63,806 bases of DNA, filler included, from a bacterium (GCA_013360215.1; 3 parts of 3 records of this genome joined end to end with filler, not necessarily neighbours in it), one strand, 5' to 3'. Shown: positions 1-58,580, counted from the whole stretch's first letter. Program-made: numbers and translations. The notes: generated by a model from the sequence alone, not told the origin.

Positions 1-627
1 GGTAAATTGATACACCATCCGAATGTCGTGAAAATATACGGAGCGGGATCGAGCGAAACGCGTCGGTTCATCACGATGGAAATGGTGGAAGGCAAGACAT
101 TGAAGCAGTTAATTCGTGAAAAAGGCGCGTTACCTGTGGATGAAACTCTGCGAATGGCACTTCATATTGCCGAGGGGTTGAAAGAGATTCACAGGCATGG
201 TGTTGTTCATCGCGACCTCAAGTCGGAGAATGTATTACTGCGTTCAGCCGGAAGTTTGGTGATCATGGATTTTGGGTTGGCTCGGATTAAAGGTATGACA
301 TCGGCGGCGGCGAGAGATCAACTTGTGGGTACGCTAGCGTATATGAGTCCGGAGCAGAGCCTTGGTAAAGAGGTAGATCATCGTTCAGATATATATAGTT
401 TTGGCGTGATCATGTATGAGATGCTATATGGAGAGATGCCTTTTATTGCGAATAATGAGATGGAGTTGATATTGGCGATTCACAACGAGACCCCGCCACG
501 ACTGGTAGCGGCAGTGCAGACTCCATACTCGGAACTTATCCGAATATGTCTCGCTAAAAGTCCAGAACAACGCTTTGGGGATGTGCAAATGCTAATGAAT
601 AACCTTGGAACATTGAGAGTGAAATAA
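1..627 (+). CDS. Hanks-type Ser/Thr protein kinase, 5'-truncated at window edge
   Basis: HPNVVKIY, HRDLKSEN catalytic loop, DFG, GTLAYMSPE and SDIYSFG motifs. The frame is open from position 1 and the protein ends right after the kinase domain. Confidence 0.93.
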   Translation, partial: GKLIHHPNVVKIYGAGSSETRRFITMEMVEGKTLKQLIREKGALPVDETLRMALHIAEGLKEIHRHGVVHRDLKSENVLLRSAGSLVIMDFGLARIKGMTSAAARDQLVGTLAYMSPEQSLGKEVDHRSDIYSFGVIMYEMLYGEMPFIANNEMELILAIHNETPPRLVAAVQTPYSELIRICLAKSPEQRFGDVQMLMNNLGTLRVK

Positions 628-659
628 TATTTTACTTCTTTTGAAGGAGTTCGTAAAAA

Positions 660-1226
660 ATGGATAAAATAAAACAAATTACAATAGCAAGCGGAGGAGT
701 TATTGCGACATCATTTCTACCCTTGTACCTATACGCATTAAGAATCGAATATAACATACAAGTTAATGTAGCGTTGTCGCCGGAGGCATTAAATTTTGTT
801 ACACTTCCTTCGATGCGTGCTATTAGCGGTGGTGTAGTGTATACTAAAAATGTGCAATTTGATTCAAATAACTTGCCTTTACACATTACACTATCACAAT
901 CCGATTTGTTAATATTATATCCAGCCTCAGCAAGAATAATAGCGCAATGTGCTACCGGCGAAATTAATTGTTGTGTTACAAGATTATTTGCATTTACACC
1001 TAAAGAAAAAATTATAATATGTCCGATATTGCACCCACAAATGGAGCGTCAATTATATCAACCGCATATAACAAAGCTTGAATCTTTGGGTTGTAAAATT
1101 ATAGGTTCAATCGAAGAAGCTCCGAATTGGGTACAAATTCAGAATTTTTTTATAAAAAAGTTACGACTAAAAGCAAGAGATGGAAATTTAAGAAGCCATT
1201 TACTGTCTTCGTTAATTATGGGATAA
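660..1226 (+). CDS. HFCD-family flavoprotein (EpiD/LanD-like Cys decarboxylase)
   Basis: N-terminal SGG, LSPEALNFV, conserved His (LPLHITL), PASA(R) flavin-binding motif and PILHPQM (PxMNxxM equivalent). AAGGAG RBS upstream. Confidence 0.85.
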   Translation: MDKIKQITIASGGVIATSFLPLYLYALRIEYNIQVNVALSPEALNFVTLPSMRAISGGVVYTKNVQFDSNNLPLHITLSQSDLLILYPASARIIAQCATGEINCCVTRLFAFTPKEKIIICPILHPQMERQLYQPHITKLESLGCKIIGSIEEAPNWVQIQNFFIKKLRLKARDGNLRSHLLSSLIMG

Positions 1227-2330
1227 TACGGGCGGTAATCTTCGTTTTAGAAATAGCTCAGTGGCTTTGTGGCAAGCACCATAAGCTGAACTCATAATAG
1301 CCATTTCTTCGCTTATTAAGAGTTTAGCGATATGGATATTTTCTTTTTTTATGCCTGTTTTCATTAATGCCGGCATACATAGTGTCTCCCCTCCCAAGCC
1401 AAAAACAATAGCCTGTTTGCATTTACTAAAACCTTTTTTTGCCTTTCTGATCTCCACACTAAGTAGATCAATAGCCGCAACATAAAATTGGTTAGCAATA
1501 TCCTGCCACTCTTTTGTGGAAAAGAAAGTGGAATCCATATCTATGGTATCCGCTATAGCTCTTATAGCATCTTTTTTGGAACCTAAAGCTCCAAATAGGG
1601 ATAACTGATTGCTTAATTCGGTTGAAAGAAGTTCCAATAATGTGGAAATGGATTGAAACGTAACACCTCTTGGAATTACGTGAAATTTATTACCTTTAAT
1701 TCTAACTTCTTTTAGAAGATACTCCAAAGGAGTGGTTTGAGTGCCAATCCATATCAGTCGTCCCGATTGAATTCTCTTGTAATGAGTTTGTGAAACTTTA
1801 GAATCGGGGGGGATGATTTTTCCGTTAATCAGTTGAAAAACTGCAGTGGTCGATCCGCCCATATCTAACACGAGACCGCTGAAAAAGGGAGGGGTTAGGC
1901 GTTTTGCCAAATGAGCGGTACCGACCGAATTTGTGAAGAAGAAATTCTGAAGACTATCGTCGGATAGAGAACTGATTCTGGAAGTTAGAACAACTGATGT
2001 ATCTTGTGTAAAAAGATACGTGTTAGTCTTAGGCAAAAGAGCTTTTAAAACTGACGCTGTATGTTTAACGCCTTCTGAAAATGTCTGATACGAATAGCCT
2101 GAGCTTATTCCTGCGACTAAACTACATATCTTTTTTTGGTAGCCGACTCCTATGTTATCAATCAGTAGATTTCGAATATATCGTTCGAAATTAGACGACC
2201 GATCATATTTTGTAAACCCTGTATGATCAATATTGCAAGTGCACCACTTTATTTGTCGGGACTCACAATCATAAATAAAAACCTTGATTTTGCTGTTGCC
2301 GATATCTAGTCCGATGCATTTATTGCCCAT
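1212..2330 (-). CDS. ASKHA-fold hydantoinase/oxoprolinase-family protein, MfnF/Orf9-like
   Basis: Phosphate-1 GLDIGNSKIK and phosphate-2 LDMGGSTT. RIQSGRLIWIGTQTTP resembles the RL..GEL.Y.G..RTP motif of the MfnF family. Confidence 0.72.
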   Translation of the reverse strand: MGNKCIGLDIGNSKIKVFIYDCESRQIKWCTCNIDHTGFTKYDRSSNFERYIRNLLIDNIGVGYQKKICSLVAGISSGYSYQTFSEGVKHTASVLKALLPKTNTYLFTQDTSVVLTSRISSLSDDSLQNFFFTNSVGTAHLAKRLTPPFFSGLVLDMGGSTTAVFQLINGKIIPPDSKVSQTHYKRIQSGRLIWIGTQTTPLEYLLKEVRIKGNKFHVIPRGVTFQSISTLLELLSTELSNQLSLFGALGSKKDAIRAIADTIDMDSTFFSTKEWQDIANQFYVAAIDLLSVEIRKAKKGFSKCKQAIVFGLGGETLCMPALMKTGIKKENIHIAKLLISEEMAIMSSAYGACHKATELFLKRRLPPVLSHN

Positions 2331-2340
2331 ATTATAGCTA

Positions 2341-2568
2341 TTAGCATCCTACACCACCAGCAGAATCCAAAAGTTCTAGCACACCAAAATTACTTGCAAA
2401 AAGTAAAAAAGAGCTTTGGGTCATAGTCTTAAATAGTTCGGCTTGTTGCGTTGTTATTTTCACCCCTTTTTTATGGGCAGCTTTTTCAGGGTGAGACAAT
2501 AGAAGAGTACGAAATTTATCATCGGAAACAGCGCAATTAAGAAGATCGGATAAATTATTTTTTTTCAT
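2341..2568 (-). CDS. Putative RiPP precursor peptide (75 aa), NHLP-clan leader, C-terminal Cys
   Basis: GGAGG RBS at 2573-2577 before ATG 2568. AVSDDKFRTLLLSHPEKA..KKGVKIT matches the NHLP leader pattern (A..D..FR..LL..P..A...G). Ends LELLDSAGGVGC*. Confidence 0.78.
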   Translation of the reverse strand: MKKNNLSDLLNCAVSDDKFRTLLLSHPEKAAHKKGVKITTQQAELFKTMTQSSFLLFASNFGVLELLDSAGGVGC

Positions 2569-3091
2569 AAGTCCTCCATGATAATGGATTGAGGTTAAGA
2601 GATTGTGTAAGAAAAGATTTTTGAATAATTTTATCGTAGATCTCAAAAATTTTATCAGTCAAATCATGAGAATCATTCGTAAATAGTATAGGAATTGTAG
2701 TAAGCATGGTATCCCTTAGTGCTGCATCATAGATTGCTTTATCTAAACAAAGTAATCCATTTAAATTACCTTTAACCATCCAGTTTTGGAAAAAACGACA
2801 ATTTGCCTGAACAATTCCAATCAATGGTTTGTTTCTAGCTGCATACCAACCTGCTTCACTTGCGCAATCGATTCCAAAGGCATCTAATAGGATAATACCT
2901 GCGTCGGAGTTCTCCATTTCACTAATACATTGTTCATAAATTTTCTTGGGAAACTGAGAATGGGGTATATCTGGAAAGGTGAATTCTTGAGGAAGAATCA
3001 GTGATATTCGTTTCTCATCCAACTTTGATTTAAAATGAGAATTTATAGGCGCGTTTATGATACTTGCTGACAGGTATAAATTTAGTTTCAT
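2555..3091 (-). CDS. Nucleoside 2-deoxyribosyltransferase / nucleotide N-glycosidase family protein
   Basis: LYLSAS, LPQE, IYEQCISEMENSD and GIDCASEAGWYAARNKP (candidate catalytic Glu) fit the NDT/Rcl/MilB fold. Overlaps the precursor start by 14 nt. Confidence 0.78.
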   Translation of the reverse strand: MKLNLYLSASIINAPINSHFKSKLDEKRISLILPQEFTFPDIPHSQFPKKIYEQCISEMENSDAGIILLDAFGIDCASEAGWYAARNKPLIGIVQANCRFFQNWMVKGNLNGLLCLDKAIYDAALRDTMLTTIPILFTNDSHDLTDKIFEIYDKIIQKSFLTQSLNLNPLSWRTYEKK

Positions 3092-3307
3092 TCTGTTTGT
3101 ATAAGTTGAGAAACTTAGAGCTTATAAAACATATATATATGTAATAAAGAATGTAATGTCATGTTGCTCTTTTGTCAACAAAAAAACACATGTATACCAA
3201 TTGCTTATTTCAATAAATCAATGAAGATTAAAATTTTCAAAATCCCTTGCGAAGCGGGCTATTTCTTTTAAATTAAAATCATAACACTTACGGTTCCTCA
3301 CGGGTAT

Positions 3308-5050
3308 ATGATCAAAATTTATGAAAGCCTGCAGGATTTGCAGGTCAAAATAGACGAAACGTTCAAAGAGCTATCGCAGGGATTTAATAAAGTCAACGGC
3401 GCGATCACGCAAAAAAACCTTCCCGCCGCCGAATCCGCACTCAATGATCTTTTTAAAGCGTTTATGTCGCGTACCCGTGCGATAAACGCCCAGTCGGCGT
3501 CGGTCGGCGCGGACATCAAAAAAATAGAATCCCAGTGCGCTGAAATATCCGCCGAAAAAGAACAATTCAAAGCGTTGTATAATTCCGGCATCGCGATGAC
3601 GACGCAAGGCGAATTGCAGGGACTGATCACATTTGCGATGGATCAGATGACCTATCATCTTCGCGCGGAACGTGGTTTTCTGATTTTGGTGGATGAGCAC
3701 GGAGAACGCGAATACTTTGTCAGTAAAAATTTTGACGGACAAAATATAGACGACCCGGCCGCCGAAGTGAGCACCAGCGTAATTCAAAAAACATTGGATG
3801 CGTTACAACCGATCAAGGTGGACGACGATACACTATCCGAGAGCATCATGAAACAAGGTAGTTTTGTGCGCCTCGGGCTTCGTGCCGTGATGTCGGTGCC
3901 GATCATTTTCAGGAAAAAATTACTCGGTGTGGTCTATCTTGACCGGCGGGAAGAAACCAAAGGTTTTTCGGATAACGACTTGGCTTTTCTGATGGCATTT
4001 TCCCGGCAGATTGCTTTTCGGGTTAATGAACTCAAGGAACAACAGCATGTTCATACCGAATACGAACGCCGTGATCGCAATCGCTTACAATCGTTGCGAG
4101 AAAAATATAATTTTTCAGAAATCATCGGCAAAAGCGAACGGTTGGTCAAAGTACTTGAATTGGCCGGTAAGGTAGCATCTTCTGAGGTTACTGTTTTGAT
4201 CCAAGGCGAGAGCGGTACGGGTAAAGAATTGATCGCCCGTGCCATTCATTTTAACAGCGACCGGTACGAACATAAATTCATAGCTATCAATTGTGGTGCG
4301 ATTCCTTCGGAACTTCTCGAATCGGAATTATTCGGATACGAATCGGGTGCATTTACCGGTGCCGTCAAAACCAAAATTGGAAAATTTGAAGCGGCGCATC
4401 GCGGAACCTTGTTTTTGGATGAAGTAGCCGAGTTGTCTATGAACCTTCAGGCCAAAATTTTACGTGTTCTGCAAACCAAAGAACTCGAACGTCTTGGCAG
4501 TACGGAAACGCGCAAAATCGACCTGCGCATTATATCGGCCAGCAATAAAAACCTCCAGCAGATGGTGCGGGAAGGTAAATTTCGTGAAGATTTATATTAC
4601 CGTCTCAAAGTCGTAGAGATCGAATTACCGGCGTTACGAGAACGGAAGGAAGATATTCATCTTCTGGTTAGTTTTTTTGTTCAGAAATACGGCGAACAAC
4701 GGATTCAGTCGGTCAGCGAAGATGCGATGGATATTTTAGAAAACTACGCATGGCACGGCAATATCCGTGAATTGGAAAATGTCATTCAACGTGCGATCAT
4801 TCTTTCGTCCGGCGCGCAGATCGAAGTGCAGGATTTACCTCCGGAGATTGTTTCCAAAACGGAAAGCGGATATAAGGTAGACAAAGATTTGTCGCTCGAA
4901 GACGCGGAAACGGATTTTCGGCGATGGTTCGTGTTACGCGCACTGCGGAAAAGTAACAACAATAAATCCAAAGCCGCTGAAATGCTTGGCATCAACCGCA
5001 CCCACTTTTTTCGTATGCTCAATCAACTGGGCATATCCGACTCAGAATAG
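3308..5050 (+). CDS. Sigma-54-dependent enhancer-binding protein (coiled coil-GAF-AAA+-HTH)
   Basis: GAF motifs (SVPIIFRKKLLGVVYLD, FSDNDL), GESGTGKE, ESELFG, GAFTGA, FREDLYYRL, GNIRELEN and a C-terminal Fis-type HTH. Confidence 0.96.
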   Translation: MIKIYESLQDLQVKIDETFKELSQGFNKVNGAITQKNLPAAESALNDLFKAFMSRTRAINAQSASVGADIKKIESQCAEISAEKEQFKALYNSGIAMTTQGELQGLITFAMDQMTYHLRAERGFLILVDEHGEREYFVSKNFDGQNIDDPAAEVSTSVIQKTLDALQPIKVDDDTLSESIMKQGSFVRLGLRAVMSVPIIFRKKLLGVVYLDRREETKGFSDNDLAFLMAFSRQIAFRVNELKEQQHVHTEYERRDRNRLQSLREKYNFSEIIGKSERLVKVLELAGKVASSEVTVLIQGESGTGKELIARAIHFNSDRYEHKFIAINCGAIPSELLESELFGYESGAFTGAVKTKIGKFEAAHRGTLFLDEVAELSMNLQAKILRVLQTKELERLGSTETRKIDLRIISASNKNLQQMVREGKFREDLYYRLKVVEIELPALRERKEDIHLLVSFFVQKYGEQRIQSVSEDAMDILENYAWHGNIRELENVIQRAIILSSGAQIEVQDLPPEIVSKTESGYKVDKDLSLEDAETDFRRWFVLRALRKSNNNKSKAAEMLGINRTHFFRMLNQLGISDSE

Positions 5051-5202: not shown

Positions 5203-5218
5203 TGGCACAGCAATTGAT
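5203..5218 (+). promoter_or_regulatory. Near-consensus sigma-54 -24/-12 promoter
   Basis: TGGCACAGCAATTGAT gives GG-N10-GA, one mismatch to TTGC. Confidence 0.55.
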
Positions 5219-5250: not shown

Positions 5251-5460
5251 GTGAAAAAAAAGGTTCTCATTTTTAATCAAGACATTGATGAATTATCAGC
5301 TATACGCCAGGTATTGGTTCGGGAAGGGTATGAAGCGATAACGGCATCCAACTGGGATACGGCGACTAAACTTTTCGCCAGCCTTGAGATTGACTATGTG
5401 CTTATGAATGGTAAATCCGGCGATATTCAGCGCGTTTTACAAAGCGCACTCAAGATGTGA
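5251..5460 (+). CDS. Small truncated pseudo-receiver-domain protein (69 aa)
   Basis: KKVLI...L..EGYE..TA....A.......D.VLM is the receiver N-half, with acidic residues replaced (NQ, N). Confidence 0.62.
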   Translation: MKKKVLIFNQDIDELSAIRQVLVREGYEAITASNWDTATKLFASLEIDYVLMNGKSGDIQRVLQSALKM

Positions 5461-5626: not shown

Positions 5627-6451
5627 ATGAAACATCTAATGACAGGGGCTTGTATTTTGGTGTTGGTTGCGTTGACTTCATGTGGTGGTGATGATGCCGC
5701 CAAACCGGAAGAATTCGGAACGCAGGAAGAAGCCCTCACGGCTCTGAATGCAAATAAATCGAATATGTTGCTGGCTTTGGATGCCGCGGAAGGAGCAATT
5801 GATGCGGCTTCAGGTTTTGGATTAGACAAACGTTCCGCGTATAATTCCAAGAAACTTAACCGTGCAATGACTTATACGTACGACGCATCTACGGGTTGGT
5901 GGACGGACGAGTATACCAATTCATCCGGCGGGTATAATTATGATTACACATGGAACATTCGTTTTACACCACGCGATGCTAATGGGTATTCGACGGATGA
6001 AACTTCAAAAATGGAATATAAATACGATTATCTTTATAACGGGGCAAACACATATTATTCATATGACATGGATCTGGGTGCCGATATGACGTTGACGGGC
6101 GTCAATGCGTATCGTGCAGCGACCGGAAATCTTGTATTAAATGGTACGAATGCAATCAGTTATGTTTGGGATTATTCGTACCTCACGTATGATTACACGT
6201 ATGATTATAGTCATAAATATACCTATAAGTCTCTAGAGATATCACCCGATGGTGACTATCCTGAAGGCGGTTCGGTCAGTTTCACCATTCGTTCCAAGTT
6301 TGAAGGTGAGATAGGTGAAGAAGGTGGTGATGCATTGAATTATTATGTCGCCGGAAAGATAACGTTCGACGGAGACAATACGGCGCTGCTCGAATTCGGC
6401 GGTTTTTCTTTTATTCTTAATTTGGATACCAATGAAGTAACACCGGCATAA
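5627..6451 (+). CDS. Tyr-rich lipoprotein, paralogue 1
   Basis: Signal peptide with lipobox LTSC, GGGAGG RBS and alternating YxYxY strands. Confidence 0.88.
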   Translation: MKHLMTGACILVLVALTSCGGDDAAKPEEFGTQEEALTALNANKSNMLLALDAAEGAIDAASGFGLDKRSAYNSKKLNRAMTYTYDASTGWWTDEYTNSSGGYNYDYTWNIRFTPRDANGYSTDETSKMEYKYDYLYNGANTYYSYDMDLGADMTLTGVNAYRAATGNLVLNGTNAISYVWDYSYLTYDYTYDYSHKYTYKSLEISPDGDYPEGGSVSFTIRSKFEGEIGEEGGDALNYYVAGKITFDGDNTALLEFGGFSFILNLDTNEVTPA

Positions 6452-6593: not shown

Positions 6594-7418
6594 ATGAAAA
6601 AAGTAATGCGATTTTTGGTAGTAGCCATGAGTACGTTCATGACCTCGTGCGGAGGTGATGATGAACTCAAACCTGAAAAATTTGCAACCCAGGAAGAAGC
6701 CATGACGGCTTTTTCCAACAATCAATATAACATGCAAGATGCTTATCATAGCGTGGGTGATGCGATTGATTATACAGGCGGTGTGAGTGTGGGTGCGGTT
6801 AAAACCGAAAAAAAGAAAAAAACGAACCGTGCCATGACGTGGGCATATGACGCGTCAACCGGTTGGTGGTCTGATGCAAATCAATATAGCGGCGAAGGCT
6901 ATAATGAAAGTTATGAGTGGAAAATAAGATACTCTCCTCGCGACGCCAATGGTCAACCGACCGAAACTACGGATAAAATGGAGTATAAATATGATGTGGA
7001 CTTAGAGTCCGGCACATCCGGTAATATGCTAGAACTTTCGACGGATCAAGATATAACGCTAACCAATATTGATGAATTTAATGCCGAAACCGGTAATCTG
7101 ATTATCAATGGCTCAAATAATTTGTCTTGGAAGATGGCTTATGCGTACGAATTGTATTCGTATTCATACGAATACGTTCACAAATATAAATACAATTCGA
7201 TCGCCGCATCCCCGACCGATTCGTATCCGCAAAGCGGTTCGGTTAGTTTTACAATCAAATCGAATTTTGAAGGAGATGGGGTAGAAGGTGATCCGGAAGC
7301 TCTTAATTACTACATCGAAGCTAAAATCACTTTTGATGGTGATAACACGGCGATATTAGAATTTGGCGGATACAGTTTTACGCTCAATTTGGATAGCTTT
7401 TCGATAACGCCGATCTGA
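6594..7418 (+). CDS. Tyr-rich lipoprotein, paralogue 2
   Basis: Lipobox MTSC. Colinear with 5627..6451 (shared NRAMT.YDASTGWW, PRDANG, KMEYKYD, KITFDGDNTA.LEFGG). Confidence 0.88.
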   Translation: MKKVMRFLVVAMSTFMTSCGGDDELKPEKFATQEEAMTAFSNNQYNMQDAYHSVGDAIDYTGGVSVGAVKTEKKKKTNRAMTWAYDASTGWWSDANQYSGEGYNESYEWKIRYSPRDANGQPTETTDKMEYKYDVDLESGTSGNMLELSTDQDITLTNIDEFNAETGNLIINGSNNLSWKMAYAYELYSYSYEYVHKYKYNSIAASPTDSYPQSGSVSFTIKSNFEGDGVEGDPEALNYYIEAKITFDGDNTAILEFGGYSFTLNLDSFSITPI

Positions 7419-29965: not shown

Positions 29966-31249
29966 TCAGACATTGTTTCCATTGTTGCCGACCGCATTTT
30001 CTCGAACCGATTTCACATAACGATTTGCGATACGATAACCGACAAAAAACAAAATCGCATACGATAGAGTTTGCCCCCAAGCTACGCCGTACTCTCCGAA
30101 TATTGAAATAAATATAAACGTAGCAACTAACCCGACCACCCCGCCAACCGCATCACGCATTAAAAATTCAGTCGGTTTACCAAAAATCGATATGATGGTC
30201 AGCTGTAAAGCAGACAGTGAAAAGAAAATATATCCGCCAAATACAACCGCCATGATGCCCCACGCATCAGCATACTTCGCCCCTCCCATTATCGGCATAA
30301 TCCAAGGGCTAAGAATACATAAAATAATCGGAGGTGGTAACGTAAAAGCCAAATACGTTCGTATGTAATTCTGTCTAACATTAATATCGCGCGTTTGTGA
30401 AAGTTTGACTGTCAAAGGATCAGAAAAAGCCTGAATGTATTGGCGCAGCATTCCCGCTGTTTTGTTGGCTAAACGAAAATTAGCTAATTGCTCCAGCGGT
30501 AACATCGCAGGTATGATCAACTGTTCGCCTTGCTTGAAGCCCAGCCTGAAAAATTTCCTCAGATAAAACGGCCAATATACTTTGACAACCTCCCACATTT
30601 TTCCGAGCTGCAGTTCAGAAATACGAGCATATTTGAAGTAATCGCGGACATAATATAAGCGGACCAGCAACGTCAGAAACATGGCTATAGTGATGCCGGT
30701 AAAATAATGATTCAGTCCGAGCCATAGATAAAACACAGTCGCAAAAATACGCTCAACGAGATTGCTGGAAGTTTCCAGGAAGGCATCTGTTCCAAAAAGC
30801 TGACGGACATTAAAAACAGACGATAAAATACCTTCACAAACAGTGAAAAACAGATGCAGCGTACACAAGTATATCACCCACGTGATATTCAGTTCCGGAA
30901 ATGAAACTTGAAGATCATCTCGCCACAGTGTACACATTACTAAAAAAAAACATGACGAAAATAATGCTACAACCATCCGTGTAAAAACCGCCGGCCAAAT
31001 AATTTCACGCACGGCTTCTTCGATTTTCCCGTCTTTTAATAATGGCGGCGCTTCGCGTATTTTACGATAGTGCAAGCCCACATCCGCAATGACTTTTACG
31101 AAGCTTACAGCCACTTCATACATTGCAATCAACGCAAAAATAACTTTTGAAAATTCATATGCAAAGTAGATCATGAAAAGCACACTCAGAAGCCCGACGG
31201 AGGAACGTCCAAGCAATATCCGAAAGGACTTTTTCATCAGTGAGTTCAT
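29966..31249 (-). CDS. Wzx-like oligosaccharide flippase, paralogue A
   Basis: Multi-TM MOP-superfamily pattern within a glycan locus. Confidence 0.8.
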   Translation of the reverse strand: MNSLMKKSFRILLGRSSVGLLSVLFMIYFAYEFSKVIFALIAMYEVAVSFVKVIADVGLHYRKIREAPPLLKDGKIEEAVREIIWPAVFTRMVVALFSSCFFLVMCTLWRDDLQVSFPELNITWVIYLCTLHLFFTVCEGILSSVFNVRQLFGTDAFLETSSNLVERIFATVFYLWLGLNHYFTGITIAMFLTLLVRLYYVRDYFKYARISELQLGKMWEVVKVYWPFYLRKFFRLGFKQGEQLIIPAMLPLEQLANFRLANKTAGMLRQYIQAFSDPLTVKLSQTRDINVRQNYIRTYLAFTLPPPIILCILSPWIMPIMGGAKYADAWGIMAVVFGGYIFFSLSALQLTIISIFGKPTEFLMRDAVGGVVGLVATFIFISIFGEYGVAWGQTLSYAILFFVGYRIANRYVKSVRENAVGNNGNNV

Positions 31250-35879: not shown

Positions 35880-37475
35880 TTACATATCTCCCGCTTTTTG
35901 AAGTTTGACCACGTCATCAATGTCCAGCCATGAGCCGCGTATGTATTTTACAGCTATGGTCGTGGTTTTAGCGATTTCATTAAAAAGATCGGCCATACGC
36001 AGATTCTTAAATTCCGGATTTTTGGATAATGTTTCCATGGCTTGTTTGACCGCAGCGGCACCATGCGTATTGACCTTCCACAGACCGACAAACTCACCGT
36101 GAATTTCTTCCGATTTCAGATTGGTGGACATACGGACAAATTTAACTGAATCCTGAAACAGGTTTTTGGAGTGCGCACGCTCGGCCCGCACATAATCTTT
36201 ATATCCGGGTGTCATTTGTACGTCACTATCCACCACGATCGTAACATCGTTATTGTCGTTGAGCAAATCATTTAAAATATAACTTTTAAAGACAATGTCA
36301 CCGTAGGCAATAACCGTGTTTTCTTTAAGTTCGTTTTTCGCCAGATACAAGCTGTACAACTCCTTCGTGGAGGCATACGCTTCATTATCGATCGTTTTGA
36401 TATTGGTCGCTTTGATCGTATCTTTTTTATATCCGCGAACCACGGTAATATCTTTGATCCCGACGCGATTAAATTCGTCCGTAGTACGTGCCAGCAATGT
36501 TTTGCCTTGGACCTTGAGCAACACCTTCGGTATATCTTTGGTGAGTTCTTTCAGATTGTTACCTTCCGAAGCGGCTAAAATAATCGAATTGACATTTTTA
36601 CCGGATGCGGGGAGGTATTTATCTTCGGCCGCTTCAAGTTCATCTGCATTTTGCAGGCGAAATATTTCATTCACCGAGGCCACTTTATCTTCAACATTGA
36701 TCAACGATTGCTCTTCAAAAATTCGTTTGGAAGTGGCCTGCATCGCTGTGATTGAGGTACGAATATTATGATTCGCCCAGATGACCATACTGATACCGAT
36801 CTGCCGATATAAATCCGTCGGCGTTGAATAATACTTCGTCGGCACAATAACGACCGGGAGTCGGCCGGCCCACTCTTTCATAAACGCTTCGATATCCGAT
36901 GGATTGGATTTTTTGCTGTGCACGAGCACGGCATCTGCACCCGCCTGACGATACGCTTCGCCGCGACGTAGCGCTTCATCCAGTCCCCATCCTGCAATGA
37001 AGGCTTCGATACGCGCTACGATAACAAAATCATCGTCTTTCTGGCTGTCGCGCCCGGCCTTGATTTTGCCGCAAAACTCATCCACATCCGCCAACGGTTG
37101 CGCTTCGCCGGAAATAAAAGAATTGGTTTTGGGAAATAATTTGTCTTCGATACAGACGCCGGCTACATTTCGTTGTTCCAGTTTTTGTACCAAGCGTCGC
37201 ATATTATTAAAATTTCCATATCCCGTATCGCCGTCCAACAGCATAGGAATCGTCGTGGCATCGCTGATGTATTCGCATACATCCAACACCTGCGTCCAGG
37301 AAGCTTCATTATTATCACGCACGCCCAGCGATGCCGATATGGACAAACCGCTGCCCCAAATCCCCTTAAATCCCGCTTCTTCTACGATTTTAGCTGATAA
37401 TCCGTTATGCGCTTCCATGATGAACTCCAGTTCTTTGGAGCGGATCATGTTTTTAAGTAGTGTCGTTTTATTCAT
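35880..37475 (-). CDS. pepM: Phosphoenolpyruvate mutase fused to a C-terminal nucleotidyltransferase domain
   Basis: [13 protein letters not shown] and the diagnostic [10 protein letters not shown] (EDKx5NS). C-terminal ILAA...PK..L, YGD and W.DID. Confidence 0.96.
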
Positions 37476-42001: not shown

Positions 42002-43273
42002 TTACAAGGTTGTGTGCACCGAGTCTTGATTTCGTAAATATTTTTGAGAGATGTGGTATCCCGTGATATAAAGCGTAAGATAAGTGATGACCTGACCCCA
42101 TGCGAGGCCATATTCTCCGTAAAACCATATCAGTGCAAATGTAGCCGACAGACCGGTTATACTGCCGATGACATCACGTTTGAGCGCTTCCTGAGGTTGA
42201 CCCAAAATAGTAACAACCGTAAATTGAAAAATAGAAAGCGCGGATATAGAGTAAGAAACAAAAAGAATGGATAAAATAGGCCAATAGTCGGCATATTTTT
42301 CTCCGCCGCCATACTTCATGATCCACGGACTCAGAATCGCTAAAATCAGAGGTACCGGAATCGTAAACATATAAAATGTTTTTTGGTACTGCTGCCTGAC
42401 AGATATATCGCGCGTTCGGGATAATCGGACGGATAATGGGTCCGAAAAAGCTTCTAAATACGCCTTCATGTATTTGGAAAAACGTTTAGCTAAATTGAAA
42501 TTGGCTACTTGCTCCAATGGTAACATAAGGGCAACCAGCAATTGCTCGCCTTGTAAAAATCCAAAACGGAAAAAACGCCGCACGTACATGGGAAAATAAT
42601 ATTTAAGCATGGGCCGCATTGTTTTCATCCGAACCTCATGGGGATACCACGCCAATAACTGCCGAACAAACCAGAAACGCAAAAGGGCTATAGCGCCTTG
42701 CGCCAAAAGAACACCAGTAAAATAATGATTCATCCCCGCATAGATGTACAAAATCGTAGCCAGTATATTTTCCAAGGTCTGCGCCGAACCATTGAGAATG
42801 GAATTAAGCCCAAATTGGCGACGAATTTGGAATAGCTGTATGGATATCGTGCTCAGGCATTCAAAAAAAATCGAAAACCCCGCGATCGTGAGAATATATG
42901 GCGCCGAAAGATCGGGAAAAGTTTGGGTAAAATGTGCGCGTATAAAAAAGAAAAATAAAAAAATCACAATCAAAACGATCAGCGATGCCGCAATACGTAA
43001 AAAAACAGACGGAAAAATGATCGTACGCATTGCTTCGTCCGTTTTTCCGGCATTCATCAGTGCCGGCGCTTCGCGTATCACTTTGTAGGATAGACCTAAA
43101 TCAATCACTACTTGCGCCAGAGTACTCAGCGTGGTGTACAATGCAATCAAAGCAAAAGTGGCTTTATCCAGCACATACGCAAAATAAACCGTAAAAAGTA
43201 CCGACACAAAAGACACACTCATGCGTCCGGCCAAAATCCGCAGTGATTGTTCAAGTAATTTATTCACATGCAA
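42002..43273 (-). CDS. Wzx-like oligosaccharide flippase, paralogue B
   Basis: Multi-TM, colinear with 29966..31249 (IREAP, NHYFTG, QGEQL, PLEQ.ANF.LA, AFSDPL). Confidence 0.8.
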   Translation of the reverse strand: MHVNKLLEQSLRILAGRMSVSFVSVLFTVYFAYVLDKATFALIALYTTLSTLAQVVIDLGLSYKVIREAPALMNAGKTDEAMRTIIFPSVFLRIAASLIVLIVIFLFFFFIRAHFTQTFPDLSAPYILTIAGFSIFFECLSTISIQLFQIRRQFGLNSILNGSAQTLENILATILYIYAGMNHYFTGVLLAQGAIALLRFWFVRQLLAWYPHEVRMKTMRPMLKYYFPMYVRRFFRFGFLQGEQLLVALMLPLEQVANFNLAKRFSKYMKAYLEAFSDPLSVRLSRTRDISVRQQYQKTFYMFTIPVPLILAILSPWIMKYGGGEKYADYWPILSILFVSYSISALSIFQFTVVTILGQPQEALKRDVIGSITGLSATFALIWFYGEYGLAWGQVITYLTLYITGYHISQKYLRNQDSVHTTL

Positions 43274-43309: not shown

Positions 43310-44527
43310 TTATTGCATTGCTAACTTAAAAATATCTTCGATCGCGCGTGTTTTGGTGAACGCATCAAAGTGCGTAACCGCACGACGTCTCGCCGATTGG
43401 GCCATGGCGGCACGCTCCTGCGGATTATTCATCAGACGAATCATAGCGTTTGCAAGCCCTTTCACATCGCCACTTTCGACGATCAATCCGTTCCCCTCAT
43501 CGCCGATTACTTCCGGGATACCGCCACGGCGAAATCCGATGACAGGCACTTGGAGCGCCATCGCTTCGAGCGCCGTGCGACCAAACGGTTCATCCCACAA
43601 CGAAGGTATCGCTAGCACATCCATGCCGCATACGTATGGACGCACATCCGATTTGAATCCGATAAAAATAACACGATCGATCAAAGCCAGTGAATGTACT
43701 TGTGCGTGCAGCGATGCATCATACGCCTGTTGTTTACTCGAATTTTGGCCGCCGACAATAACACAGCGAATATCTTTTTCAGGGAACTGCCTGATCATCT
43801 CAGCAACAGCGGTTATCAATACATGATAACCTTTTTTAGGAAGCGGTCTCCCGCACGCGCCGACGACAAAAGCCGTTAGCGGAATATGATACTCCTCGCG
43901 CAGCCTACTGCGTATCCGCGTAGGATCAAATTCATCGAAATCTATTGAATTGTAAACCACATTTTTTTTATGTGAAGGTACCGGAAAAAGTTTAGCCGTA
44001 TGCTCCGATACCGCAATAACGGATTTTAATGAGGACCATCGGCTAAAAAAAGCTATCCCTACACGCGACAAGCCGTCGGGCACATTGCGTAAATGCCAAA
44101 TCACAGGAATTTTTGTTACCCATCCCGCAATGGTACCAATAAAACGTGTCGCGGTAGTATTGGCATGTATCAGTGCAATATGGTGCTTACGAATCAGAGA
44201 CGGTAAATAAAAAAAACTCACCGCTATGAAATCGCGCACTTGCAAAACCGGCTTGATCCACCGTAAGAAGCCTCGAGCTTGATGCGATGTCATCCCGATG
44301 CGCAGATGCGGCTCATATAAGATGGTCGCCAGTTTTTCTTCCTGAACGCGCGTATTGAGAAGGCCTTCTTTTTCCGGTACAGCAATAAAAGCCTCAAACT
44401 GCTCTTTATCAAGAAAACGTAGAATATAAAATAAACTACGGGCTCCTCCGCCGTGCGTCAACGACTGCTCAAGGAATAGGATACGCGACTTAGATATGGG
44501 CTCTGAGAAGTGTGAATTCATTTCCAC
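43310..44527 (-). CDS. Glycosyltransferase family 4
   Basis: GGGARSL, KKG and EPFGRTALEAMA. Confidence 0.92.
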   Translation of the reverse strand: MEMNSHFSEPISKSRILFLEQSLTHGGGARSLFYILRFLDKEQFEAFIAVPEKEGLLNTRVQEEKLATILYEPHLRIGMTSHQARGFLRWIKPVLQVRDFIAVSFFYLPSLIRKHHIALIHANTTATRFIGTIAGWVTKIPVIWHLRNVPDGLSRVGIAFFSRWSSLKSVIAVSEHTAKLFPVPSHKKNVVYNSIDFDEFDPTRIRSRLREEYHIPLTAFVVGACGRPLPKKGYHVLITAVAEMIRQFPEKDIRCVIVGGQNSSKQQAYDASLHAQVHSLALIDRVIFIGFKSDVRPYVCGMDVLAIPSLWDEPFGRTALEAMALQVPVIGFRRGGIPEVIGDEGNGLIVESGDVKGLANAMIRLMNNPQERAAMAQSARRRAVTHFDAFTKTRAIEDIFKLAMQ

Positions 44528-46233
44528 AATTTTTTTACCTGATCAAGCCACAAAGAAAGTGCCGTGACATTCCACATAAATTCATAAGCGCGTCGCGGCA
44601 ATCGTGTTTGCGATGGAGCCGTAGCCCTCCATAACACATTAAGTTGACCATGATCTACAAACGAAAGCAAAGGATTATCTTTTTTCCACACCGTGTTTTC
44701 TATATATGCCCGAATTCGCGGTTCTGAAAAAATTTTGTGCATCGGCGGAGTAAAACCTTTCTTTTTTCGATAAACCAAGTCATTCGGAATATTTTGAGCT
44801 AACATGGATTTGAGTATTGATTTATTAACGCCGTTTCGGCATTTGATCGAAAACGGCAAGCTCAAGCCATTATCAACAAATTCAGGCGAAAGATAGGGAT
44901 AAATCATACGATTCCCAAATCGTATCATACTGTCATAAAGTTTAGCTCCGGCTTTACCGGTGCAGGCCATCTGGATATCCGACGCAGCATAATTGGCCAA
45001 TAAATTTTGTTCATGATACATTGGTTGATCCAAAATATATCGCAAAACTTCTTTTTTTACCGAATCCGGTATGGTATAAAGAATACCATTAAACGGATTA
45101 CGTGCCAAGTACCACGCCACAGGCAACGGCCATTCCGCCGATAACTTGTGTTTAGCCAAAGTAGCGCTCCATGCCGTGTCATAACGCCAAAGCGACAAAC
45201 TCCGGTACATCCATGACTTCATTTTACGTACAAGATACGGTGAGCGATAGCGCCGTTGCCATTTTGTATATGCCGTCAAACCGCCGTGCAATCCGTCTGC
45301 ACCGGTACCATCAATAGCGCTATGTCTGGGAAATTTTTGAGCGACGTATTCGGCTAACACCATAGAAGGCAATGTCGCGTAATCACAAAACGGAAATGAA
45401 TACGTAAGGCCGATACGCGCCATTTGGGTTTCGGCTTGCTCCATCGTAAACTCTGCGACATGAAGCGGCATTCCCAAATACGTACTTATGGCGCTCGCCA
45501 CCGAAAGCTCAGGATCGTCCGACCCAAAACTCAAAAATACCGGTTCGATTTTTTTTTGTATTGCTCCGGCATACGCCATGATTAAAGCCGAATCCACGCC
45601 GCCGCTAAAAAATAAAACCGACCTATCCGGTATAGAGTGAATCGTGTCCGAGAGCGTCTTTTGCGTGTCCTGGTACGCTTCATTATATGTCTTATTTTCC
45701 AACGGCGGAATGCGGTAATGGGTATCTTCAATCACCGCTTTAAACGAAAAACGATACGCACAACCCGGGCGTGTACGACGAATGGATCGGAAAAGCGTAA
45801 GCGGTGCCGGAGCGCTATTAAATTGTAAACATGCATAGAGCACGACTTCGTCTATTTCAGGCGAGGCAAAACCAATCATTAACCGCAAATCATCGGAAAT
45901 CAACCAACCGTTTCCGCAACGGGCATAATAAATTTGTTTTACTATCCACGGCGCACAATAAACCGTTATCTCTTCGGTCGTGGTTTCCCAATGTAAGTAA
46001 TGTGAATTTTGGCGAAAGTTTCCATTCGGATGTGTATCTGAAAATAAAATATCGGCCGGATTCTGAATCGTTCCCAAGCTGGCTTTAACAAACATCATCT
46101 TCGCATTATTTTGCTTTTCCAAACGATAGGTCAAACCGATACCGGCAGCATACCGCGCGACATGGTTTTCAAAATACTCCGGCGGCTTATCGCCGAAAAA
46201 CGCAATAAAGTAAACGGAGTCGTTATTATTCAT
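44518..46233 (-). CDS. Asparagine synthetase-like ATP-dependent amide ligase
   Basis: SGGVDS PP-loop, G.GAD, PYL and RKKKGF. No N-terminal catalytic Cys. Confidence 0.82.
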   Translation of the reverse strand: MNNNDSVYFIAFFGDKPPEYFENHVARYAAGIGLTYRLEKQNNAKMMFVKASLGTIQNPADILFSDTHPNGNFRQNSHYLHWETTTEEITVYCAPWIVKQIYYARCGNGWLISDDLRLMIGFASPEIDEVVLYACLQFNSAPAPLTLFRSIRRTRPGCAYRFSFKAVIEDTHYRIPPLENKTYNEAYQDTQKTLSDTIHSIPDRSVLFFSGGVDSALIMAYAGAIQKKIEPVFLSFGSDDPELSVASAISTYLGMPLHVAEFTMEQAETQMARIGLTYSFPFCDYATLPSMVLAEYVAQKFPRHSAIDGTGADGLHGGLTAYTKWQRRYRSPYLVRKMKSWMYRSLSLWRYDTAWSATLAKHKLSAEWPLPVAWYLARNPFNGILYTIPDSVKKEVLRYILDQPMYHEQNLLANYAASDIQMACTGKAGAKLYDSMIRFGNRMIYPYLSPEFVDNGLSLPFSIKCRNGVNKSILKSMLAQNIPNDLVYRKKKGFTPPMHKIFSEPRIRAYIENTVWKKDNPLLSFVDHGQLNVLWRATAPSQTRLPRRAYEFMWNVTALSLWLDQVKKLWK

Positions 46234-56585: not shown

Positions 56586-58580
56586 TTAAACTAATACGGC
56601 CAACACCTGGCCGATATTTTGTAACCAAAAAAGAAAACGCGTAATATAGCGCTGAATTCCGACTTCGTCCCGCTCAAGCACGCGGCTATTATTGGTCCAG
56701 TTGATATCCAATAAATTGACGCGATCCGGATCAATATGCACCGATTTGATTTTCGCCTTACCATGGTAAACAAATTCCTGGGGCGCGTATTGACCGTCCC
56801 ATGTCTCGACAATGGAATCGCCGTCGGCAAAACAAACCAAAATTTTCGTCGGAAAATAACCATCGCCCATATTGCGTACGGAAAATCCGCTTCGGTATTG
56901 TTTTAGTGAATCCGATGCATCGCTGCCGGTAAAACTCAGATCATTACCCTCGCCAAACCAGCCCCGGGACGCATGTATTTCTTCATTAAATATCCCTGCT
57001 ATCTGATAATCTACGGTTACCGGTTTATTGACAAACTGATCAAAATACCACATAAAATCCTTCCCGGTCACTTCATTGACCACCGCATAAAAATCGCGCG
57101 GTTTGGGATGCTTGAAACTGTAACGTTCAAAATACGTGCGCATGACTTTATTCCACATCGCATCACCGAGGTGGCGTTGCAGTGTTTCCAAAACAAGCGC
57201 CGGTTTGGCATAGGCCGCAGGCTGATAAAAAGATTCCGGAATATTCCACGAAAAAGCTTCGATCACACCGTCTTTGGGTCGGCTCGTATAGCTGCTTCGA
57301 TTATAGGCCAATACGTTGAAAGGAATACCGAAAATATCCGCCATTTCGTAAGCAATATTATTCTCCTTTGCAAAACGAACGGATGCACGCGCTTCGGTAT
57401 ATTGCGTAAATCCTTCATCCATCCACGGATGTTCAAATTCATTGGTTGCTACGATACTTTGAAAATAATTATGGCCGAATTCATGAAACGTCACAGTCTC
57501 CAGCCAATGGTTGGGCACGATATATTTATTGATAAAAGGCCATCCGAAATAAGAACCCGTCGTGACAAGTGTCGGATACTCCATACCGCCGGCTGTCATT
57601 TCTTCACCTACAGGCATATCTACGATCGTCAGATTGGGATAGGGATACGCGCCGTACCACTCTTGATAATAATTGAACATCGCTTCGGATGTCGCATAAT
57701 ATTTGGGCATTACCCAAAGGCGTTCCGGAGGAACTAAATACGTCACGACGACCTGCCGCCCTGTTTCTTTGATCGTCACTGTTTGCTGAAGTTCCTTAAA
57801 GTGAGGATACGCTGTCCAGACGGCATCAATTACATCTTCCTGACGATAGCGGAATAGATTGGTACTGTCGTTGAGCGCTTTCTTTTCCATAAGCACGGCA
57901 TTGGCGCCGACGACGTATTTTTTTGGAACGGTTAGCTCCATCGTATAAACGCCGAAGTCGGCATAGAATTCAGAATTGGAGTGAAACTGATGGCAATTCC
58001 ACGCTCCGTTTTCCCATACCCCGATTTTGGGAAACCATTGACCGATGAGATAAAACTCATCTTCCGTAAAACCCGTACGTGCATACACGCGCGGCAGTTT
58101 GGATGTGAAATCGCAGGTAAGCCGAATATCTCCGCCCGGAGGTATCGGGCGACTCAGCGGAACACGCATTACCGTACGATCGTCCTTGTTTCCGTCATCC
58201 GGTGCGATGTATTCGATACGCGTCGTGAGGTTTTCTCCGCCGGCCATCGCCAAATTTTTTATGAGGATATAACCCCAATTGGCCGAATCCAGTTTAATCT
58301 CACCGGAACGATGCCGTCCTCCGCTTTCACGAATAAAAGTAGATCTTTCATTGCGAAATGCATTGAGGTAAAGGTGAAATTGCAATTCCTTTACCGTATC
58401 ACGACTGGCATTCCACCAATGCAGATTCCACGATGCCTCGACGGTTTTCAGTTCCGGCTTCAATTCCGCCCGCAAATCATAGTTGGCAATACGCGGGCTC
58501 AACGGTTTTTCAAAAATTTTTTCCTGCGCTATCACCGATAAACCGGTCAGAGTAATAAAAAACAAATAACGGAAACTCAT
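56586..58580 (-). CDS. M1-family zinc aminopeptidase (secreted)
   Basis: Signal peptide, GGMEYP, HEFGH...WMDEG and AYAK. Confidence 0.92.
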   Translation of the reverse strand: MSFRYLFFITLTGLSVIAQEKIFEKPLSPRIANYDLRAELKPELKTVEASWNLHWWNASRDTVKELQFHLYLNAFRNERSTFIRESGGRHRSGEIKLDSANWGYILIKNLAMAGGENLTTRIEYIAPDDGNKDDRTVMRVPLSRPIPPGGDIRLTCDFTSKLPRVYARTGFTEDEFYLIGQWFPKIGVWENGAWNCHQFHSNSEFYADFGVYTMELTVPKKYVVGANAVLMEKKALNDSTNLFRYRQEDVIDAVWTAYPHFKELQQTVTIKETGRQVVVTYLVPPERLWVMPKYYATSEAMFNYYQEWYGAYPYPNLTIVDMPVGEEMTAGGMEYPTLVTTGSYFGWPFINKYIVPNHWLETVTFHEFGHNYFQSIVATNEFEHPWMDEGFTQYTEARASVRFAKENNIAYEMADIFGIPFNVLAYNRSSYTSRPKDGVIEAFSWNIPESFYQPAAYAKPALVLETLQRHLGDAMWNKVMRTYFERYSFKHPKPRDFYAVVNEVTGKDFMWYFDQFVNKPVTVDYQIAGIFNEEIHASRGWFGEGNDLSFTGSDASDSLKQYRSGFSVRNMGDGYFPTKILVCFADGDSIVETWDGQYAPQEFVYHGKAKIKSVHIDPDRVNLLDINWTNNSRVLERDEVGIQRYITRFLFWLQNIGQVLAVLV

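Follow-up and report, generated by a model that had tools for sequence, protein, structure and literature searches.

A conserved cassette around a Cys-ended Os1348-like peptide: candidate scaffold-peptide biosynthesis with a new set of enzymes

What could be made from a small ribosomal peptide that ends in cysteine and is encoded among genes best known from nucleotide and cofactor metabolism? The question is raised by positions 1 to 3,091 of a 63,806-nt stretch of bacterial DNA (GCA_013360215.1; the whole stretch, filler included, is hereafter called the window), which hold genes for a 75-aa peptide close to the Os1348 family, a nucleoside deoxyribosyltransferase (NDT)-fold protein, a protein resembling MfnF and a flavoprotein of the HFCD (homo-oligomeric flavin-containing cysteine decarboxylase) family. 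An earlier note on this DNA had joined these genes and an adjacent kinase gene in one pathway for a peptide that is ribosomally synthesized and then modified post-translationally (RiPP). Other genomes keep the gene set, the peptide invariably ends in Cys, the named folds are borne out and the active-site residues typical of the families are present. Judged by its sequences, the locus is a candidate for biosynthesis on a RiPP or scaffold peptide by a new enzyme set, and we consider it moderately probable that a RiPP-like pathway with a scaffold peptide acts on the terminal Cys.

A conserved cassette and its Cys-ended peptide

Reading of the open reading frames (ORFs) gave a tightly packed minus-strand unit of three genes. 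The gene of the NDT-fold protein (178 aa, 2555-3091), the first of the operon, overlaps the peptide gene (2341-2568, within an open frame of 2341-2646) by 14 nt (2555-2568), and a gap of 10 nt (2331-2340) separates the peptide gene from that of the MfnF-like protein (372 aa, 1212-2330), an ASKHA-fold protein with distant profile matches to TIGR03123. The stand-alone HFCD flavoprotein (188 aa, plus strand, 660-1226) is encoded convergently to the MfnF-like protein with an overlap of 15 nt (1212-1226). The packed unit, its 14-nt overlap and 10-nt gap, and the 15-nt convergence with the HFCD gene had been described in the earlier note and were all reproduced exactly. The G+C content (GC) is 0.337 for the HFCD gene (0.24 at third codon positions, GC3), 0.381 for the MfnF-like gene, 0.360 for the peptide gene and 0.330 for the NDT-like gene, against 0.463 (GC3 0.47) for the kinase gene on one side, 0.458 for a sigma-54 activator gene on the other and 0.442 for the whole window. 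Among 614 sliding windows of the same length, the segment 660-3091 falls within the lowest 0.8% of GC. This dip, together with the rarity and patchy spread of the cassette, which themselves point to horizontal transfer, points to a low-GC island of four genes that was acquired horizontally.

An exhaustive HMMER search for the MfnF-like protein over 1.84 billion representative proteins returned 72 proteins at E ≤ 0.001 and 12 at E ≤ 1e-30, one of the latter being the window's own fragment, and a word-based search of 5.8 billion clusters returned one true homologue. Locus scans with a six-row MfnF-like alignment (A2; a more diverse 14-row alignment is called A1) gave seven loci from species-representative genomes and seven from metagenomes. 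L008, a metagenome fragment of 1,011 bp, copies the window and is the only other copy found. In ten loci (L001-L005 and L010-L014), tblastn and ORF reading placed the NDT-like, peptide and MfnF-like genes in the same order on one strand, while the contig of an eleventh locus, L009, starts 75 bp upstream of its peptide gene and hides the upstream side. The named records of the cassette come from Polyangiaceae, Myxococcales (two), Planctomycetota and one unclassified bacterium, with Myxococcota and Planctomycetota as the phyla represented, and the GC of the loci ranges from 48 to 75%. The MfnF-like proteins of the related loci share 44-75% identity with each other (median 51%) and 31-37% with that of the window.

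All-against-all clustering of the ORFs, with antisense shadow frames over the same genes set aside, showed which genes recur: the MfnF-like gene in 14 loci (window included), the NDT-like gene in 11, the peptide gene, a gene for an HExxH metalloprotease-like protein in 10, the HFCD gene in 4, and sigma-54 activator genes in 4 distinct loci (five entries, those of L005 and L022 being the same gene). The NDT-like gene lies directly upstream of the peptide gene in the 10 related loci, and the MfnF-like gene adjoins a Cys-ended peptide gene in 13 loci other than the window. This order is far beyond chance, and the three genes (NDT-like, peptide, MfnF-like) make up a single conserved unit. As is general for RiPP clusters, a small precursor gene is co-located and co-oriented with enzyme genes, and the arrangement is conserved across genomes. 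The unit is also rare: the MfnF-like profile matched in 1 of 401 sampled genomes of the phylum of G001, namely G001 itself, and G005 was likewise alone in the sample of its own phylum.

The window peptide is read from an internal ATG at 2568, which is preceded by GGAGG, and ends ...LLDSAGGVGC. All 11 related peptides are 74 aa long and start with an ATG that has a ribosome-binding site, which supports the 75-aa start in the window. They end in (K/R)RRAAC without exception (11 of 11), preceded by TDP in ten and by ADP in that of L005. In an alignment of 14 peptides (the window's, its 11 relatives and two from Sericytochromatia), the terminal Cys is invariant in every row and, besides Met1, is the only invariant residue. 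Cys as the last residue was thus correctly read in the earlier note, and the recurrence elsewhere of the gene set with a conserved Cys-ended peptide, on which its reading depended, was borne out by the ten loci of like order and the 14 of 14 peptides. Two of the relatives reach the cut-off of 40 bits for NF038399, the Os1348 family of the NHLP clan (L001 with 52.5, L002 with 40.0), and the Sericytochromatia peptides of L006 and L007 score 26.4 and 28.2. The founder of this family is Os1348 of Pseudomonas sp. Os17, an antibiotic-related protein of 85 aa whose gene is accompanied by those of a GNAT protein, an HExxH peptidase and a SagB-type dehydrogenase; its crystal structure is a folded dimer in which the last six residues are disordered (PMC7726476). 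Such a structure fits a scaffold that presents a flexible tail.

Two loci from Sericytochromatia (L006, 4975-9158; L007, 4983-9155) hold a variant. Each encodes a Cys-ended Os1348-like peptide (70-75 aa, ending GGDHC or VADDC), a radical SAM/SPASM protein and then a distant MfnF-like protein (23-24% identity). The radical SAM protein is nearest to TIGR04053 (179 bits against a cut-off of 395) and then to MftC (136 against 265), below both cut-offs. A divergently encoded neighbour carries a cyclic di-GMP-binding domain and is nearest to the daptide intramembrane HExxH protease (191 bits against 300). The two loci are a second, independent context of the MfnF-like protein and a Cys-ended peptide, which thus form the pair that stays constant; the other partners here are typical of RiPP maturation.

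Enzyme families, active sites and the protease-like partner

Members of the NDT family act through a catalytic Glu nucleophile that works with a Tyr and two Asp residues. The NDT-like protein of the window scored 35.6 bits with PF05014 (cut-off 28.8) and matched no NCBIfam model. Its predicted structure (predicted local distance difference test, pLDDT, 86.4) has NDTs (7o62, 1s2d), MilB and DNPH1 as top Foldseek matches, and also BcmB. Glu79 aligns, in the AFELGY stretch, with the Glu of the 7o62 chain, and Asp70 and Asp75 with Asp residues of that chain; all 10 aligned sequences keep Tyr6, Asp70, Asp75 and Glu79. The assignment of this gene to the NDT family, made in the earlier note, therefore holds by profile, fold and site residues. 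The subfamily comprises 33 clusters at 47-57% identity.

ASKHA proteins are marked by a phosphate-1 motif (DxGxxxxK) and a phosphate-2 motif (DxGGxT), and the MfnF-like protein keeps both (DIGNSK and DMGGST). D9, G11, N12, K14, K16, D156, G158 and G159 are invariant in the six-row alignment A2; in A1, with its 14 rows, D156 and G158 do not vary, and D9, K14 and K16 are almost invariant. The AlphaFold model (pLDDT 89.2; predicted template modelling score, pTM, 0.90) is closest to archaeal Q6M145 (3cet/3c0b; Foldseek E 2e-21, target template modelling (TM) score 0.80), and its further matches are generic ASKHA kinases and acetone carboxylase at TM ≤ 0.5. The profile scores are 65.1 bits with TIGR03123 (cut-off 244.1), 57.6 with NF040623 (520) and 20.2 with Hydantoinase_A (22.9). 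The label MfnF-like is hence right for the fold, which is closest to 3cet/3c0b, and for a distant similarity, and it goes too far if taken as membership in NF040623 or TIGR03123, the cut-offs of which are far away. A complex prediction with the MfnF-like, NDT-like and peptide chains, run without controls, returned a score of 0.02 and a mark of 0.32, values that speak neither for nor against a complex.

The HFCD protein scored 33.8 bits with PF02441 (cut-off 22.7). It stayed below the cut-offs of the CoaBC model (51.4 bits against 219.7) and of the CypD family NF033753 (33.6 against 215), as did its orthologue from L012 with the latter (28.7 bits). His75 falls on the conserved His in the alignments with the CoaBC chain 6tgv and the CoaC chain 6eoa and one residue off in that with 6jls; it is kept in 9 of 9 members of the subfamily and corresponds to the active-site His67 of EpiD. 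The subfamily holds 20 other clusters, all at E ≤ 4e-34, one of them that of Paraburkholderia megapolitana WP_408381725.1. Orthologues with 41-48% identity to the window's protein were found in L012, G005 and G001. That of L012 (41% identity) is encoded convergently to the cassette, 216 nt after the HExxH gene; that of G005, the genome of L005, lies on the contig of the cassette, about 10 kb beyond it (E 1e-49); and that of G001, the genome of L001, lies at the very edge of another contig (E 1e-45), the L001 contig itself breaking inside the HExxH gene. Since G001 and G005 each hold a separate CoaBC-grade match, the HFCD is an extra copy in these genomes. The HFCD profile matched in 1 of the 401 sampled genomes of the phylum of G001, again G001, the genome of the MfnF-like match. 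Moreover, the records of the MfnF-like (P0007), HFCD (P0075) and NDT-like (P0108) proteins are each placed on an NCBI contig of 208,521 bp, from which we infer that the three share one contig. Four lines of evidence (the low GC, the orthologues, the rarity and the shared NCBI contig) argue that the HFCD belongs to the pathway in a subset of genomes. By sequence it would be a putative peptidyl-cysteine oxidative decarboxylase of a rare subfamily, and by analogy it may act in the window as an accessory decarboxylase.

Directly after the MfnF-like gene, ten loci, which are all those long enough to show this position, encode an HExxH metalloprotease-like protein with the motifs HPCPGYxH...FCPPV and HExxHH...F(V/I)EEQ. 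Its N-terminal domain matched no Pfam or NCBIfam family and had only weak metallopeptidase-like leads in the ESM Atlas (scores ≤ 0.90, TM ≤ 0.51). In L005 (9122-12769) and L012 (1971-4388) a cyclic-nucleotide-binding domain (PF00027) follows at the C-terminus of the same protein, a fusion that suggests release under the control of a second messenger. No homologue of the HExxH protein was found in the window, either by tblastn or by a profile search over all frames of at least 60 residues (E ≤ 10), and no C39-type or other obvious processing protease is among the ten large ORFs of the window. An M1 peptidase at 56586-58580 was considered for this role and set aside, being unrelated by position. 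The window peptide lacks the KRR motif just as the window lacks the HExxH gene. Three independent contigs of metagenome-assembled genomes (L001, L003 and L004) break within the HExxH gene after the cassette, hiding what lies downstream; such breaks may reflect a repeat or a stretch that is hard to assemble.

A proposed route and the readings that compete with it

A route can be drawn from the families of the enzymes. Like Os1348 in its crystal structure, the 75-aa peptide would form a helical scaffold whose tail is flexible and presents the C-terminal Cys to the enzymes. Through its Tyr/Asp/Asp/Glu site, the NDT-fold enzyme would break the glycosidic bond of a nucleoside or nucleotide and supply a (deoxy)ribosyl unit or a free base. 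The MfnF-like ASKHA enzyme would then make a thioether between the Cys sulfur and a phosphate-activated carbon, a step proposed by analogy because MfnF displaces diphosphate from F1-PP. Oxidative decarboxylation of the Cys by the HFCD (-46 Da) would give an enethiol or aminovinyl-thio end. In the relatives, the HExxH metalloprotease-like protein would thereafter release the end of the ...KRRAAC tail, presumably by cleavage at KRR/AAC, while the window variant (...AGGVGC, without an HExxH protein) would probably be cut at AGG/VGC by a different protease. Both versions of the tail would leave a three-residue piece that ends in the modified Cys.

The strength of these steps differs from that of the frame around them. 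The particular chemistry, namely a nucleotide-derived group, a thioether, decarboxylation and release by a protease, is drawn by analogy and is unlikely to be right as it stands. The capping or cyclisation with a nucleotide-derived group put forward in the earlier note is a proposal of the same hypothetical kind. A full version, which would amount to a new class of ribosomal natural product and in which, through the MfnF-like and NDT-fold enzymes, the Cys carries a thioether of a (deoxy)ribosyl unit or of a 5'-linked, later base-stripped nucleoside, the HFCD decarboxylates it, a modified tripeptide or cysteamine-type product arises, release in the relatives senses cyclic nucleotides, and the product serves as a regulated signal or cofactor, is doubtful. 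As to the kind of product, the tail is kept invariant across phyla, although the enzymes are only about 50% identical, and some of the protease-like partners have second-messenger domains; together these features suggest a conserved signal or cofactor more than an antibiotic that varies. The single pathway claimed earlier is supported for the NDT-like, peptide and MfnF-like unit in ten loci and, in a subset of genomes, for the HFCD; it probably does not extend to the kinase, whose GC is that of the flank.

Several points weigh against such a pathway or its details, the first being that the chemistry rests on analogy throughout. The MfnF-like protein falls far short of both curated cut-offs, so that MfnF-type chemistry is not to be assumed. 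The HFCD decarboxylases bind their substrates with a PxMNxxMW motif, where P-x-(L/I/V)-H-(P/A)-x-(M/F), in short PxLHPxM, stands in the present subfamily and 9 of 9 members have His in place of the Asn. The LanD-like HFCD of the earlier note accordingly stands as to its family, with PF02441 passed and His75 kept; the CypD cut-off is not reached, and the motif Asn is not conserved. No HFCD orthologue was found in G002-G004, three of the five genomes searched, for which completeness is not given; the searches there returned only CoaBC-grade matches (E 6e-6 to 3e-9). In two of these genomes, G003 and G004 (Myxococcales), a group II pyridoxal phosphate (PLP)-dependent decarboxylase (PF00282, E 5e-53) is encoded beside the cassette, upstream of the NDT-like gene at a distance of 11 to about 40 nt (L003, 5615-7174; L004, 5660-7165). 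One may speculate that this enzyme offers an alternative route, with decarboxylation after release.

The peptide itself adds to these points. With 37.3 bits, that of the window lies just under the NF038399 cut-off of 40, and it appears to be a diverged member: its helical part aligns, and its tail is unlike that of all relatives. As to the NHLP-like leader proposed earlier, the window peptide scores only 16.5 bits with the leader family TIGR03793, against a cut-off of 50.9. Furthermore, the whole peptide is conserved and has no variable core, a pattern that suits a cofactor, a signal or a carrier better than it suits a classical antibiotic RiPP and that keeps the carrier considered next in play. 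ORF clustering of the loci showed no recurring RRE-type leader-binding domain, transporter or immunity gene, and of the dedicated protease or transporter by which RiPP clusters are also recognized, the window has no HExxH homologue. Finally, contigs from RNA libraries, described in the last section, give a hint of expression, with DNA carry-over possible and no ranking of the genes to be drawn from them.

LysW-type carrier proteins provide a model for a different use of such a peptide, in which a small protein is used repeatedly, its thiol carrying an intermediate during the assembly of a nucleoside-like or thio-sugar molecule by the NDT-like and MfnF-like enzymes. The catalytic TglA scaffold of 3-thiaglutamate would be another parallel. 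This reading, which we think improbable, draws on the conservation over the full length, the fixed 74 aa in 11 of 11 relatives and the invariant tail. The folded Os1348 dimer with its flexible C-terminus (PMC7726476) and the documented C-terminal Cys scaffold logic of 3-thiaglutamate agree with it. However, a reusable carrier would be destroyed if the HFCD decarboxylated its Cys, and an enzyme to restore the Cys is absent: the island consists of four genes only, and no LanB-like or PEARL-type domain appeared in profile searches. The protease-like gene in the conserved set of the relatives is likewise difficult to reconcile with a carrier.

Still less likely is an operon of nucleotide or cofactor metabolism in which the small protein is a regulatory or structural subunit that stays unmodified, its Cys serving for instance as a metal or redox ligand. 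NDT, HFCD and ASKHA proteins are indeed best known from nucleotide salvage and the synthesis of CoA and methanofuran, and the PLP-dependent decarboxylase beside the cassette of L003 and L004 would suit such an operon. Nevertheless, the peptide appears to belong to a clan of RiPP precursors, the partners in Sericytochromatia are typical RiPP maturases (radical SAM/SPASM and a daptide-type protease-like protein), the extreme rarity and patchy spread are unlike core metabolism, and G001 and G005 keep a separate CoaBC-grade gene.

The kinase enters through a lanthipeptide-like reading, in which it would phosphorylate a Ser or Thr, the phosphate would be eliminated, and the enethiol formed by the HFCD would add to the dehydro residue to close a C-terminal aminovinyl-cysteine (AviCys) ring. 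The gene of this Ser/Thr kinase (1-627, plus strand, read as an ORF that is 5'-open at the window start; Pkinase 152 bits) is followed after 32 nt by the HFCD gene, which has the same orientation. The HFCD orthologue of G005 likewise has, ending 17 nt ahead of it, a gene for an FHA-domain protein with a degenerate kinase-like domain (L022, 6322-7650; Pfam E 4.5e-5), so that kinase-like genes precede the HFCD in two of the four readable HFCD loci, more often than we would expect by chance. The window peptide also offers a Ser at position -6 from the Cys. Against this, the kinase has the GC of the flank (0.463) and not that of the island (0.33-0.38), and no kinase was counted beside the HFCD of L012, which has a PAS histidine kinase divergent from it, or of G001, where an ArsR-like gene stands. 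The G005 protein aligns VVAKRK with the VVHRDLK of the window kinase and thus seems catalytically inactive, and neither profile searches nor ORF clustering showed a lyase or cyclase gene. The Ser of the window has no counterpart in the relatives, and their Thr at -9 is Ala in L005. This AviCys reading is consequently very improbable, and the kinase, listed as a member in the earlier note, is probably not part of the pathway.

A mere gathering of neighbours without shared function is scarcely credible, for the weak curated scores of some single genes are all that speaks for it, against an order kept in ten loci across phyla with genes overlapping or nearly abutting, and two rare families in the same 1 of 401 genomes. 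Among these explanations, the scaffold-peptide pathway directed at the terminal Cys is the one we prefer.

Surroundings of the cassette and the closest known systems

Upstream of the operon, a sigma-70-like promoter candidate (TTGACA, 17 nt, TACATT) lies at 3150-3178 on the minus strand, about 60 nt before the NDT-like start. With 10 of 12 consensus matches it is the best in its region; the region has 11 such sites against 11.3 expected in shuffles, and the candidate is accordingly weak. The divergent neighbour of the cassette, found by profile search, is a GAF-type sigma-54 activator (3308-5050). Control of the cassette by this activator was considered and rejected, as a TGGCAC-N5-TTGC-like site is absent upstream of the window cassette. 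Sigma-54-type sites were also absent upstream of the cassette in nine of ten related loci, with only two sites, each of three mismatches, in L013. Although sigma-54 activator genes recur near the cassette in four loci, they share only the generic AAA+ part, and the activator of the window is likely a flanking gene. A sigma-54-type site (TGGCACAGCAATTGAT, one mismatch to the consensus) does occur at 5203-5218, just downstream of the activator gene and about 30 nt upstream of a small ORF (5251-5460), and is a likely target of that activator. No convincing flanking repeats of a mobile element were seen, and an anti-phage defence reading was dropped, the four island proteins having no PADLOC match.

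The window stretch occurs in activated-sludge metagenomes, and DNA runs of four further studies, possible source samples aside, hold at least 75% of its sampled words. In two studies, contigs from RNA libraries match 1742-2774 with 100% identity, one of them, of 828 nt, running from the last part of the NDT-like gene through the peptide gene into the first part of the MfnF-like gene. At 2550-2583, where the NDT-like stop and the peptide start lie, another contig of these libraries (run X19, record 16) turns back on itself, probably through an assembly artefact.

Farther along the window, tandem paralogous genes at 5627-6451 and 6594-7418 encode lipoprotein-like proteins of 274 aa that have a signal peptide ending in Cys, are rich in Tyr and Asp and belong to no Pfam family. 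A phosphoenolpyruvate phosphomutase fused to a nucleotidyltransferase domain (35880-37475) is encoded amid a series of genes for polysaccharide synthesis (Polysacc_synt at 29966-31249 and at 42002-43273; Asn synthase-like at 44518-46233) and may serve the phosphonate decoration of a glycan.

If the preferred pathway is real, NDT-type glycosidase/transferase and MfnF-like ASKHA folds, known in the searchable literature only from nucleotide and cofactor metabolism, would join the peptide-tailoring enzymes, and a peptide-nucleotide or thio-sugar hybrid would be indicated as the product. The system is compact, with three or four genes, a 75-aa substrate and a single target residue. In the searchable full texts, which leave subscription journals and supplements outside, no paper was found that ties MfnF, deoxyribosyltransferase, hydantoinase, ASKHA or NHLP with these families to a RiPP or peptide pathway, and the matches for NHLP, flavoprotein decarboxylase and C-terminal cysteine together were all without NHLP. 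The claim that no described RiPP class combines these families therefore agrees with that literature.

How, then, does the cassette compare with what is known? Cluster OS3 (Os1348-Os1351) of Pseudomonas sp. Os17 shares with it a peptide in or near the NF038399 family and, in the relatives, the HExxH peptidase-like partner; its other partners are a GNAT acetyltransferase and a SagB-type dehydrogenase instead of NDT-like, MfnF-like and HFCD proteins, and its description makes no mention of a terminal cysteine (PMC7726476). In the biosynthesis of pearlins and 3-thiaglutamate (TglA, PmaA), the C-terminal Cys of a scaffold is transformed and the product is then cut off by a protease (10.1101/338681, PMC9303977, PMC9016710). 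Here, too, a conserved scaffold peptide carries a C-terminal Cys. Unlike in pearlins, it is encoded by the gene and not derived from Cys-tRNA, and no PEARL, LanB-like ligase or TglHI-type enzyme is among the four island proteins.

The single enzymes have their own nearest relatives. MfnF is held to join F1-PP, a diphosphate-activated carbon, to a glutamyl-tyramine or tyrosine unit (PMC8141765). The window protein resembles MfnF and TIGR03123 in its ASKHA fold, with 3cet/3c0b nearest, and in distant sequence similarity, whereas it belongs to a separate and very small family that always stands beside a Cys-ended peptide and not with methanofuran genes. The NDT-like protein shares with NDT, DNPH1, MilB and BcmB the fold and the Tyr/Asp/Asp/Glu site and passes the Pfam cut-off; in contrast to them, it forms a tight subfamily whose gene adjoins the peptide gene in every locus long enough to show the neighbours.

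The LanD-type HFCD decarboxylases of AviCys peptides, among them EpiD, MrsD, CypD and the thioamitide enzyme, are the known counterparts of the flavoprotein. As in their systems, a stand-alone HFCD gene lies beside a ribosomal peptide that ends in Cys, and the conserved His is kept. The present locus differs in that it has no dehydratase, lyase or cyclase and no conserved Ser/Thr partner, that the HFCD occurs in only part of the cassette genomes, and that the core partners are the NDT-fold and MfnF-like proteins.

In the mycofactocin and daptide pathways, the C-terminal residue of a conserved precursor is decarboxylated, further altered and released. The cassette departs from these pathways in its terminal residue, which is Cys, in the families of the window enzymes and in scores below the curated cut-offs. 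Its logic would nonetheless be the same, and the Sericytochromatia variant has an MftC-like radical SAM/SPASM gene and a daptide-type protease-like gene.

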